From an uncultured Alphaproteobacteria bacterium (GTDB lineage Bacteria; Pseudomonadota; Alphaproteobacteria; CAAHEQ01; UBA3637), in NCBI GenBank assembly GCA_934202735.1, contig CAKPYH010000001.1, positions 75,614 to 139,613 on the forward strand: DNA of 64,000 nt, written 5' to 3'. The notes beneath the pieces were generated by a model that ran no database searches, was not told the origin of the DNA, and saw nothing but the letters and a program-made list of their open reading frames with translations. The translations under genes were made by a program, and so were the position numbers. This document shows, piece after piece, positions 33,005 to 41,396 of the stretch. Position 1 is the first letter of the stretch. Each line of letters starts with the position of its first letter.

Positions 33005-33559
33005 GCAATATCGCGATCATTTTAGAAGGGAGATTCAAAGTGAATAAAGTACTCAATTTGATTTGTAGGACAGCACTTTTGGTATTTATGATGATTTTTA
33101 ATGCAACGATTTTATGGGGTATATATCACACAGAGAGTGTGTTTGCCCTGTGTTTGGGCATTTTATTTTTTGCCTATTTATATTTTCAATTGTTCAGAAA
33201 AGATAACAGACAGAAAAATTCTTTTTGGGGATTGTTTGCAAATATTCTTTTACCGATTTACCTGGTATTATTTGTATCATATATATTTAATTCGTTATCT
33301 GATAAAAATCTATATCATGATCCCGTTCAAGAGGGGCTAACTATGTTTATGGGCATTTTGATCTGTGTTATCGTAATTCCGGCTTTTTCTGCCATACAAA
33401 GTTTTTTGATGTGTGAGTTTGCTCGCTTGTCATCATCTAATGAAAAAGATATGTGAGTATATCATACCTCTTGCAAAAAACAAAGGAAATTATGTAAAAT
33501 AGACGGTTTTCAATATCGTTGAGTTATAGCCCCCAAATTGCCCACATGACTGCACATAA
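33005..33559 (+). repeat. about 555-bp direct repeat, copy 1 (carries small membrane-protein gene); near-identical to 40806-41359
   Basis: Visually identical apart from a few substitutions (for example GTATAT versus GTGTAT, CCCCCAAATTG versus CCCCTAAATTG). Ends with core GCCCACATGACTGC (33540-33553). Confidence 0.9.
33040..33456 (+). CDS. small polytopic membrane protein (138 aa, about 4 TM), copy 1
   Basis: GTG start 33040 preceded by GGGAGA. VNKVLNLICRTALLVFMMIFNATILWGIYHTESVFALCLGILFFAYLYFQLF... Identical copy at 40840-41256. Confidence 0.55.
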   Translation: MNKVLNLICRTALLVFMMIFNATILWGIYHTESVFALCLGILFFAYLYFQLFRKDNRQKNSFWGLFANILLPIYLVLFVSYIFNSLSDKNLYHDPVQEGLTMFMGILICVIVIPAFSAIQSFLMCEFARLSSSNEKDM

Positions 33560-33580
33560 ATATAAAATAAAACATAAATT

Positions 33581-39413: not shown

Positions 39414-40847
39414 ATGAAAATTGTACAGTTAATTTTTGTTATATTGTTTTTCCTTGTTTTAACAGGGGCCGGATTGTTTCGGCAGTATCAATATACTTTA
39501 AAATTTGATGATGTTTCTAATGGTATTCTGACTGTCAACGGAGATGAAGTTATTCCTAAATTCTCAAAAGATGTCAAAGATTATCATTCAACATCCTTAT
39601 CGGCTCTTACACCAAATTTAATGCAGTTTGGAAATACAACTAAAAAATTCAATGTTAAAGAAATTAATCCACAAAGTCCTGTCATTCCATTCAAAATTGG
39701 AAATGAAACATATAATCTGCATGTTTGGTCTGCTAACCTTGCTGAATTTGACACAAAAGGTGCAAAAAACGTAGAAGATGGTCATTATTTTATCACTTCA
39801 GAATGGTGGGATCAAAACCACACTTTTCCGGCTTATATTGTCAATAAATATGGCCAAATTTTATATTATAAATATGCGATTGATAAAGAGAATAATTTAA
39901 AAAGCGCAAGTGATTTTAAATATACAATTTTATCTGATGGAACGATCCTATATTCTTTAATAGGAAATGAGACTTTATTCGTGATGGATAAGAATTTTCA
40001 ACCTTTTTTCAGAACGAAGTTATTAAAAAATTCAACTCATTGGGAATTCGGATTAGATGGCCATCATCATGTTATTTTAGGAAAAGATCATTTTATCATT
40101 TTCGCAACAATGCTTAAAGAAGTGTTGGACGCAAAAAAAAACAAGCCGATATTTTTAGCCGTCCCGATTATACAAGAGATAAAAGATAATAAAATCATAT
40201 TTGAGTGGAATGGGTTGGATTATCCGGAATTATATGAAAATTATTCTCAATGTAAAACATGGCCTAATGGAACTTTTGATTATGCTCATCTCAATGCCAT
40301 TATAATTGACACCAGTGATAATAATTTGATTTTGTCTTTTCGCGGAATAAATACATTATTGAAAATAGATCGAAAAGATGGTCATATCATTTGGCAATTA
40401 TCGGGGTATAATGACAATTTTAATTTAACAAAAGAACAAAAATTCTATGGACAACATTTTCCATATATTGATAAGGATGGATATTTAACTGTTTTTGATA
40501 ATTTCAGTAATATGATGGGAGAAAAAAATTTTATTCAAGAAAATTCTTCAATAAAAAAATTCAAGCTGGATCCCGTCAATAAAAAAATAGTTGAATATAA
40601 AAAAATTCCTTTAATTTTCTGGTCTTACGCAATGGGATCCGCATTGCCGGTCAAGCAGGGAAGATATCTTGTGTCCGCAGGTAGTTCTAATATTTCCAAT
40701 CTATGTGCACTGGAAATTTCTGAAAATGGCAATGAAGTTTGGAGATTGACATTTAAAGATCCAAACCAAAAACGTGTTTGCTATTATGTTTATAAACGTC
40801 CGTTCGCATATCGCGATCATTTTAGAAGGGAGATTCAAAGTGAATAA
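39414..40847 (+). CDS. putative ASST-like beta-propeller protein, paralogue 2 (477 aa, N-terminal signal-anchor)
   Basis: MKIVQLIFVILFFLVLTGAGLF.... ...YAHLNAIIIDTSDNNLILSFRGINTLLKIDRKDGHIIWQLSG... parallels the H-x-N-x-(L/I)-x-(Y/I)-D...LLKIDRK...W block of the 539-aa paralogue. The last 12 codons (YRDHFRREIQSE*) are supplied by repeat copy 2. Confidence 0.4.
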   Translation: MKIVQLIFVILFFLVLTGAGLFRQYQYTLKFDDVSNGILTVNGDEVIPKFSKDVKDYHSTSLSALTPNLMQFGNTTKKFNVKEINPQSPVIPFKIGNETYNLHVWSANLAEFDTKGAKNVEDGHYFITSEWWDQNHTFPAYIVNKYGQILYYKYAIDKENNLKSASDFKYTILSDGTILYSLIGNETLFVMDKNFQPFFRTKLLKNSTHWEFGLDGHHHVILGKDHFIIFATMLKEVLDAKKNKPIFLAVPIIQEIKDNKIIFEWNGLDYPELYENYSQCKTWPNGTFDYAHLNAIIIDTSDNNLILSFRGINTLLKIDRKDGHIIWQLSGYNDNFNLTKEQKFYGQHFPYIDKDGYLTVFDNFSNMMGEKNFIQENSSIKKFKLDPVNKKIVEYKKIPLIFWSYAMGSALPVKQGRYLVSAGSSNISNLCALEISENGNEVWRLTFKDPNQKRVCYYVYKRPFAYRDHFRREIQSE

Positions 40848-41396
40848 AGTACTCAATTTGATTTGTAGGACAGCACTTTTGGTATTTATGATGATTTTTA
40901 ATGCAACGATTTTATGGGGTATATATCACACAGAGAGTGTGTTTGCCCTGTGTTTGGGCATTTTATTTTTTGCCTATTTATATTTTCAATTGTTCAGAAA
41001 AGATAACAGACAGAAAAATTCTTTTTGGGGATTGTTTGCAAATATTCTTTTACCGATTTACCTGGTATTATTTGTATCATATATATTTAATTCGTTATCT
41101 GATAAAAATCTATATCATGATCCCGTTCAAGAGGGGCTAACTATGTTTATGGGCATTTTGATCTGTGTTATCGTAATTCCGGCTTTTTCTGCCATACAAA
41201 GTTTTTTGATGTGTGAGTTTGCTCGCTTGTCATCATCTAATGAAAAAGATATGTGAGTGTATCATACCTCTTGCAAAAAACAAAGGAAATTATGTAAAAT
41301 AGACGGTTTTCAATATCGTTGAGTTATAGCCCCTAAATTGCCCACATGACTGCACCACCACCTGCTCCCTTTTACAGGCATTGTTTTCGTTCTTTT
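40806..41396 (+). repeat. about 555-bp direct repeat, copy 2, plus about 40-bp tail (core GCCCACATGACTGC at 41340-41353 then CACCACCACCTGCTCCCTTTTACAGGCATTGTTTT)
   Basis: Near-identical to 33005-33559. The tail is shared with 35965-36000. Confidence 0.9.
40840..41256 (+). CDS. small polytopic membrane protein, copy 2 (identical to 33040-33456)
   Basis: Identical sequence within repeat copy 2. Confidence 0.55.
   Translation: MNKVLNLICRTALLVFMMIFNATILWGIYHTESVFALCLGILFFAYLYFQLFRKDNRQKNSFWGLFANILLPIYLVLFVSYIFNSLSDKNLYHDPVQEGLTMFMGILICVIVIPAFSAIQSFLMCEFARLSSSNEKDM

Follow-up and report, generated by a model that had tools for sequence, protein, structure and literature searches.

Genomic and pathogenicity islands that are linked to tRNA genes carry att repeats and include integrase-less derivatives of the cis-mobilizable element (CIME) type, as known for the integrative and conjugative element (ICE) ICESt1 and its CIMEs. 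The present work deals with an islet between tRNA-Glu(CTC) and the gene ptsN within a 64,000-nucleotide stretch of DNA (contig CAKPYH010000001.1, positions 75,614 to 139,613; hereafter the window) from an uncultured Alphaproteobacteria bacterium, in which a pair of long direct repeats, R1 and R2, had been described in an original prediction as the ends of a composite cassette. The minimal mobile element (MME), introduced for Neisseria (Saunders & Snyder 2002; Snyder et al. 2007), is defined, as quoted in PMC3082526, by conserved flanking genes, differing whole-gene cassettes between them and incorporation by homologous recombination. Additive flexible genomic islands, as described for Alteromonas (PMC3698932), comprise a variable number of cassettes, are conserved in part and change among very close relatives. 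The islet is a well-resolved example of this ordinary kind, i.e. an MME or additive flexible islet, and not a new kind of system.

The explanation favoured here, which is considered fairly probable, is that the islet consists of independent modules, designated A, N, K and P, which are arranged around a constant small gene, S, and are shuffled by homologous recombination. Like an MME, the islet is enclosed by conserved flanks (lptG and tRNA-Glu on one side, ptsN on the other), contains whole-gene cassettes that vary from strain to strain and is devoid of mobility genes; at least ten arrangements are found between identical lptG/tRNA-Glu and ptsN/hpf flanks, and homologous recombination in shared sequence would be the best explanation for the exchange. 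Unlike the MMEs of Neisseria, it resides in an uncultured gut proteobacterium at a site that abuts a tRNA gene, its internal constant gene S, which may itself occur in duplicate, partitions the site into a slot upstream and a slot downstream, and two short repeats, termed att and u, mark several cassette borders. With additive islands the islet shares the tRNA site, variable cassettes, a part that is always retained (S) and fast turnover among close strains. Such islands, however, usually come with integrases, integrons or transposases, whereas the islet contains no transposase, integrase, integron feature or intI, and at 0.6-9.7 kb it is much smaller.

The location at a tRNA 3' end, the low GC content, direct repeats of about 33 bp in strains whose islet begins with module A (A-first strains) and a cargo of secreted proteins of the host-interaction type recall classical tRNA-linked or CIME islands. 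Unlike these, the islet has no integrase, a partner ICE or phage was not found, its long repeats are a duplicated gene and not att, and most of its module borders lack att. A composite transposon is resembled insofar as two long, direct, near-identical repeats bracket cargo. This candidate was rejected, as the sole open reading frame (ORF) of the repeat encodes a 138-aa protein with four transmembrane helices instead of a transposase, inverted repeats are absent from the repeat ends, R1 to R2 is not flanked by an identical short target-site duplication, and no copy occurs at another site. An integron cassette array was likewise rejected, given the lack of intI and of a structured attC-like fold at u and att.

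Arrangements of the islet among strains

In the window, the islet and its flanks comprise the following features.

31653-32753, forward strand: lptG, the conserved left flank gene (Pfam LptF_LptG, E 1.7e-54)
32880-32954, forward strand: tRNA-Glu(CTC) (ARAGORN; Rfam tRNA, 59 bits)
32955-33007, forward strand: leader a, the 53-bp segment from the tRNA to R1 (junction comparison)
33008-33555, forward strand: repeat copy R1 (repeat search and pairwise alignment)
33040-33456, forward strand: S gene copy 1, an ORF with GTG start for a 138-aa, four-helix orphan membrane protein
33537-33555, forward strand: u at the 3' end of R1 (ATTGCCCACATGACTGCAC), directly abutting module K
33581-35923, reverse strand: module K, a secreted-looking ankyrin-repeat protein (Pfam Ank_2, E 1e-43)
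35948-35998, forward strand: u (35948-35968, ATAGCCCACATGACTGCCCCA) and att1 (35969-35998, TCACCTGCCCCCTTTTACAGGCATTGTTTT), the junction of the S-K part with the A-S part
36149-40847, forward strand: module A, a four-gene operon (Pfam, ORFs)
36149-36601, forward strand: DUF4352 lipoprotein-like gene of A (Pfam)
36618-38237, forward strand: arylsulfate sulfotransferase (ASST) gene of A (Pfam)
38241-39404, forward strand: OprB-family porin gene of A (Pfam)
39414-40847, forward strand: second, ASST-like gene of A (Pfam, ORF)
40808-41355, forward strand: repeat copy R2 (repeat search and pairwise alignment)
40840-41256, forward strand: S gene copy 2, an ORF with GTG start whose protein is identical to that of copy 1
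41337-41387, forward strand: u and att2 (att 41358-41387), the right islet boundary, followed by the ptsN-side flank CGTTCTTTTATC...
41558-42016, reverse strand: ptsN (PTS EIIA-2), the conserved right flank gene (Pfam)
42023-42643, reverse strand: hpf, after ptsN (Pfam)

The islet starts at 32955, the first base past the CCA of tRNA-Glu, and its GC content amounts to 31-37% per kb (32-34% for the modules) in comparison to 48-50% in the flanks. With a size that ranges from 631 to 9654 bp across variants, the interval between tRNA-Glu(CTC) and ptsN is, to judge from composition and variability, a low-GC islet that is hypervariable and was acquired horizontally.

Contigs that encode S or an identical LptG or HPF protein were taken from human-gut metagenomes, including the Hadza cohort (about 40 contigs). 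Those of the same species display at least ten arrangements from the tRNA to ptsN, written here in this direction.

S: L012 (whole islet 631 bp)
S-N: L031
S-K: L009
S-N-K: L008
A-S: L010 and 7 similar contigs
A-S-K: L016, L018 and 6 similar contigs, L030
A-S-N: L013, L014, L015
A-S-N-P: L011
S-K-A-S-P: L001, L007
S-K-A-S: the window

S occurs in every islet variant examined, with A in the slot upstream of it and N, K and P downstream, and no other locus was seen to carry alleles of S. In a sister lineage of about 90% identity (L004) the order is S-K-att-A-att-X. N is a 252-aa orphan gene without a Pfam family, P is a serpin gene (Pfam), and X, found in L004, encodes a 669-aa protein with weak ankyrin matches. 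The K ORF spans 780 aa from a TTG codon, while gene calls in related contigs use an internal Met (759 aa, start 35860).

For A, N and K, taken in pairs, all four combinations of present and absent occur. An identical LptG protein is encoded on contigs with 9 different islet arrangements, flank divergence among strains is only 0.4-1.4%, and the flank haplotype does not follow the arrangement: A-S-N strains differ from each other by up to 30 single-nucleotide polymorphisms (SNPs) in the 2.1-kb left flank, i.e. the same arrangement is found on different haplotypes. In its flanks the window is nearest to one strain each of the S-N type (8 SNPs) and the S-K type (10 SNPs). Its A module, on the other hand, is nearest to those of A-S-K and A-S strains (31-40 SNPs in 4.8 kb), as opposed to 79 SNPs relative to another S-K-A-S strain. 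The modules reassort independently of one another and of the flank haplotypes. As a separate observation, L001 (sample MERR22) and L007 (Hadza) show 0 SNPs in each of the 2.1-kb left flank, K and A; the same strain seems to be present in both data sets, or the samples seem to be related.

Junctions of the modules

Besides R1 and R2, the window contains a third repeat that the original prediction did not mention, a 51-bp element at 35948-35998 and 41337-41387. It is composed of the u motif ATWGCCCACATGACTGCNCCA followed by att, NCACCTGCNCCCTTTTACAGGCATTGTTTT, and the first 19 nt of u also form the end of R1. In A-first strains the CCA of the tRNA runs directly into att, i.e. GGGTCGCCA, then CCACCTGCCCCCTTT(T)ACAGGC(A/G)TTGTTTT, then TGATTGACAAG..., and for this reason att is regarded as the native 3' trailer of the tRNA, apparently duplicated at module borders. 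Module A always begins right after att. In the window's species, att followed by CGTTCTTTTATC... closes the islet in every contig that reaches ptsN, a count outside of which the islet closure of L004 falls, because that contig stops before ptsN.

Direct repeats of about 33 bp, which take in the CCA of the tRNA, delimit the islet of A-first strains, while in the window the tRNA is followed by leader a and not by att. This leader is present wherever S comes first, and att plus A takes its place in A-first variants. Within it, TTGACT-16-TAAAAT at 32962-32989 resembles a promoter, which is at most a weak hint, as such sites are not above shuffles in the AT-rich region. The segment 32955-35968 of the window (a, S, u, K, u) sits exactly between the CCA and att, which also separates K from A. 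Moreover, window 32955-35998 aligns end to end with the S-K strain L009 (99.0% identity) and window 35970-41387 end to end with the A-S strain L010 (98.9% identity). Because these two strains match its two parts, the layout of the window corresponds to an S-K form and an A-S form joined at att. In the window, L009, L016 and L008, K has a u on either side, whereas L001, L007 and L004 feature a different allele of the S-to-K junction without the left u. P is inserted within u/att and starts with the att-like CCCTATCACAGGCGTTTCT.

Neither u nor att displays features of a structured site: u plus att folds no better than shuffles (z-scores +0.6, +0.7 and -0.55), att contains no inverted-repeat core, and no RNA or DNA family matches the element. 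A role of att as terminator or structured site was rejected on the same fold and Rfam results. Likewise, u was considered as a decayed tRNA 3' half and rejected, since no more than roughly 57% of positions agreed with the 3' end of tRNA-Glu when the two were compared by eye, and T-arm complementarity is lacking.

The repeat pair and gene S

R1 and R2 are direct repeats of 548 bp with 99.6% identity and a start-to-start distance of 7800. They differ by two substitutions (33459 A/G and 33534 C/T) and share an exactly identical stretch of 451 bp; if one 1-nt indel is allowed, the similarity stretches about 3-4 nt further to the left (33004/40805). The direct repeat is real and chance is excluded. 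R1 starts 53 bp past tRNA-Glu and R2 ends 32 bp short of the right islet boundary, the two repeats being the edges of the low-GC segment. In the original prediction the repeats were 555 bp long with three mismatches and an indel, and S followed a GGGAGA-n7-GTG start. The copies are indeed not substantially divergent, and the direct orientation, the bracketing of the ankyrin and ASST genes (coordinates, Pfam), the motif (at 33028-33033), the GTG and the length of 138 aa all stand, while the repeat figures, although close, are replaced by those given above and the spacer is 6 nt instead of 7. If the source assembly was of short-read type, repeat collapse could have inflated the near-identity of R1 and R2 in part. 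In the independent assemblies L001 and L007, which share the two-copy layout, the S copies differ at 15 of 491 aligned positions.

S encodes an orphan. Its AlphaFold model consists of four long helices at low confidence (pLDDT 55.6), and no Pfam family scored above its cut-off, the best being a sub-threshold TerC match with 17.6 bits versus a cut-off of 27.8. Of the 5.8 billion clusters covered by a word-indexed search, no more than two further 90% clusters matched. An exhaustive HMMER scan across 1.84 billion representatives added one distant relative of 36% identity, and a scan of genome contigs retrieved only this 36% relative, in a Hadza alphaproteobacterial metagenome-assembled genome (MAG), the window's own species not being among the matches. 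With a ratio of nonsynonymous to synonymous divergence (dN/dS) of 0.35 between the window and L004, S is under purifying selection.

The distant relative (P0003, 36%, 138 aa) is located at L005 7508-9636 and L017 5656-8085, in another Hadza gut alphaproteobacterial MAG. It directly follows a gene for a 141-aa orphan, with a serine resolvase gene divergently upstream and an SMR-family gene downstream; in L017 it lies about 630 bp from tRNA-Pro(GGG), which is again a tRNA-near, island-like setting. The 141-aa neighbour was considered as a paralogue of S and rejected, its similarity to S being nil.

Since the C-termini of both S and the ASST-like protein change with the junction, module junctions rewrite the ends of proteins. 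Insertion of N swaps 91 bp at the 3' end of S (33436-33526) and thereby creates a new C-terminus, ...SSKYLD with N in place of ...SSSNEKDM without it; the N-type S counts 136 aa from the GTG in gene calls, or 154 aa if the caller starts upstream. At the other junction, the final ASST-like ORF enters R2 by 40 nt and overlaps the start of S copy 2 by 8 nt, on account of which S copy 2 is probably co-translated with the A operon. The last 13 codons of the ASST-like protein are provided by R2 (window 40808-40847, ending in ...AYRDHFRREIQSE and a stop), and in the sister lineage, which lacks R2 at this point (L004 15100-15140), the protein has 462 aa as compared to 477 aa and ends in ...YVYKR.

The two S copies of one genome share private SNPs, at column 227 in the window and at columns 246 and 258 in L007, which suggests exchange between S copies within a genome, a pattern that assembly collapse could mimic. 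Between the window and the sister lineage, the synonymous divergence (dS) is 0.235 for S and 0.73 for the adjacent lptG. Because of this difference the islet looks more recently shared than the core genome, although codon bias in the low-GC S could also depress dS, and the comparison suggests that the islet crossed between the lineages after their divergence. At the nucleotide level, window and L004 are about 92% identical in the islet and 87.8% in lptG.

Mobility genes and partner elements

According to Pfam searches and annotations across the roughly 40 variant contigs, neither the islet ORFs nor the 10 kb to the left and right of the islet contain a recombinase or mobility domain, and the statement of the original prediction that a dedicated recombinase is absent was upheld in this respect, as neither the repeats nor the islet encode one. 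The sole tyrosine recombinase of the window is a XerC/D-like gene at 2673-3596, about 30 kb from the islet. Searches for partner elements were negative as well: neither the viral contig collection nor the metagenome contigs of the Joint Genome Institute (JGI) contain the att pattern, a 74-bp query across u and att had no match in phage records, the repeat was not found on plasmids or phages, and a 34-mer that is invariant in S gave no match in JGI metagenomes.

Proposed exchange and alternative explanations

As no local recombinase, no fold or family of att and u, and no occurrence of att or the repeat in phage, plasmid, viral or JGI collections was detected, homologous recombination, partly over short homology, between strains as well as within chromosomes is favoured and rated as rather probable. 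Two forms would suffice as a starting point, F1 (tRNA-a-S-u-K-u-att-ptsN) and F2 (tRNA-att-A-S-u-att-ptsN). A crossover between F1 and F2 in S would yield A-S-K together with S alone, both of which are observed. An unequal crossover between the terminal att of F1 and the tRNA-proximal att of F2 would give S-K-att-A-S, and hence the window order tRNA-a-S-u-K-u-att-A-S-u-att-ptsN, together with an empty site, which is not observed. The N and P states would be swapped likewise, with S or u serving at one end and att together with the ptsN flank at the opposite end. RecA-type exchange may thus act at three shared classes of sequence, namely S (about 430-548 bp), att (about 30 bp) and u (17-20 bp), either between strains, if DNA is taken up or otherwise transferred and the conserved flanks provide the anchors, or inside one chromosome, and an element-encoded recombinase would not be required.

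In a genome with two S copies, R1 and R2 would, as RecA substrates generally do, be expected to recombine and thereby delete or amplify K-att-A, and the window's repeats may have this ability at present. Such recombination had been proposed in the original prediction, and the S-only L012 has precisely the layout predicted for the deletion product (tRNA, S, ptsN) and is compatible with it. The S and u alleles of L012, however, match the A-S strain L010 and not the window, and an amplified form was not seen.

Several points weigh against shuffling by homologous recombination. Att or an att-like sequence occupies three borders (K/A, S/P and P/ptsN), as tandem site-specific integration would leave it, and the shared sequence at the tRNA/a border (exactly past the CCA) and at u/K is 3 bp and 16 bp, respectively, which is short for RecA-type exchange. 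The empty site tRNA-att-ptsN was not seen among the approximately 40 contigs. Since the sister lineage already has S-K-att-A, the two-copy form or a precursor of it could be ancestral, with single-copy forms as deletions, so that events may have run in either direction. Finally, most contigs are metagenome assemblies, in which mis-joins of strains at repeats are possible in principle; the two-copy layout recurs in independent samples, where the copies are distinguishable.

Tandem site-specific accretion of integrase-less elements at an attB consisting of the 3' end of tRNA-Glu and its trailer would account for part of this picture, with a tyrosine integrase that is encoded elsewhere or has since been lost and with the S duplication as a by-product of two S-carrying elements. 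In accretion arrays of CIMEs and ICEs, att copies are left at the borders. The islets of A-first strains, with direct repeats of about 33 bp that read tRNA-CCA·CCACCTGCCCCCTTTTACAGGCATTGTTTT on the left and ...CCCCA·CCACCTGCCCCC... on the right, present the classic attL/attR picture; the cassettes A, P and X each start with att or an att-like sequence, and a-S-K is inserted exactly past the CCA. Accretion is nevertheless held to be unlikely, given that 5 of 8 module borders (tRNA/a, S/N, u/K, A/S and N/u) are without att, that att neither folds significantly nor has an inverted-repeat core, that no integrase is encoded in or within 10 kb of the islet (the window offers only the XerC/D-like gene), and that the viral, JGI and phage searches for att and u were negative. 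A related proposal, for which we see little likelihood, regards att (CCACCTGCCCCCTTTTACAGGCATTGTTTT) and u (ATTGCCCACATGACTGCNCCA) as recognition sites of an unlinked recombinase that handles promoter-less or self-promoted cassettes at the tRNA-Glu(CTC) trailer; if true, the locus would be an integron-like platform without linked integrase or hairpin attC, in which S serves as a fixed landmark.

The composite cassette of the original prediction, in which K-att-A plus one repeat forms a unit that is excised as a circle, re-inserted or amplified by recombination of the terminal repeats, can draw on 548-bp direct repeats of 99.6% identity as an ample RecA substrate, on the existence of the S-only form and on the order A-S-K, which is expected in a circle or a tandem duplication and is represented by L016 and L018. 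The cargo, though, is not moved as one piece, for K and A also occur separately and in the reverse order A-S-K; the alleles of L012 point to L010, the amplified form is missing among the contigs, and a second locus with the repeat was not found. S is instead a resident gene, single-copy in most strains and with different cassettes on either side, and the two-copy layout is one arrangement among at least ten. The S-K-A-S block was not found at other loci, on plasmids or on phages, and the search for further repeat copies yielded none besides the two in the 64-kb window, none on plasmids or phages, and S at this locus only. The composite cassette is accordingly judged improbable. Even less credence is given to an assembly artefact, in which the contig would be a chimera of co-existing S-K and A-S strains joined at att or S: in samples of the same type both parental forms are common, and the 451 bp of exact identity look as if one graph node had been used twice, but S-K-att-A-S was assembled independently in MERR22 (L001) and Hadza (L007) data with copies that differ at 15 of 491 positions, L004 has S-K-att-A on one contig, and the final k-mers of common assemblers exceed att (30-50 bp) in length.

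Genomic neighbourhood

The junction of lptG, tRNA-Glu and ptsN, including the position of the tRNA, is confined to the window's species and the sister lineage. In the nearest other species (L034, L035 and L037), whose LptG is 73-79% identical, lptG is followed by neither tRNA-Glu(CTC) nor S nor ptsN; as references for an ancestral empty site these relatives were therefore rejected.

Elsewhere in the window, the XerC/D-type tyrosine recombinase (307 aa; 2673-3596, reverse strand; 5259-5894 is also listed) lies beside and divergent from aroK (shikimate kinase) and is probably the housekeeping chromosome-dimer resolvase. A cluster of parB, parA and gidB (rsmG) at 54406-56708 and a shift of GC skew from negative to positive near 58 kb (about 57000-59000) indicate that the replication origin region is probably inside or beside the window. 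Further genes of the surface or host-interaction type encode an autotransporter beta-domain protein, a Sel1-repeat protein and a 508-aa protein (listed coordinates 62047-63762, 27707-28405 and 50254-51780, all on the reverse strand). The last of these has a sub-threshold ATG17-like match (PF04108, 24.4 bits versus a 43-bit cut-off), is annotated as MamY_C in its orthologues on related contigs and adjoins a PemK toxin pair, which is seen at the equivalent position in related loci.

Implications

Long direct repeats that flank an island need not be its mobility ends, and comparison across a population settles the matter quickly. What distinguishes this islet is a duplicable internal constant gene that divides the site, along with eukaryote-like cargo in the form of ankyrin and serpin genes. 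The locus provides a nucleotide-level record of how a gut commensal shuffles an ankyrin gene, a serpin gene and an ASST operon with its own porin within one species, confined to a single tRNA-adjacent site and without mobile-element machinery. Hence, strain-level differences in ASST, serpin and ankyrin genes in this taxon can stem from simple recombination.

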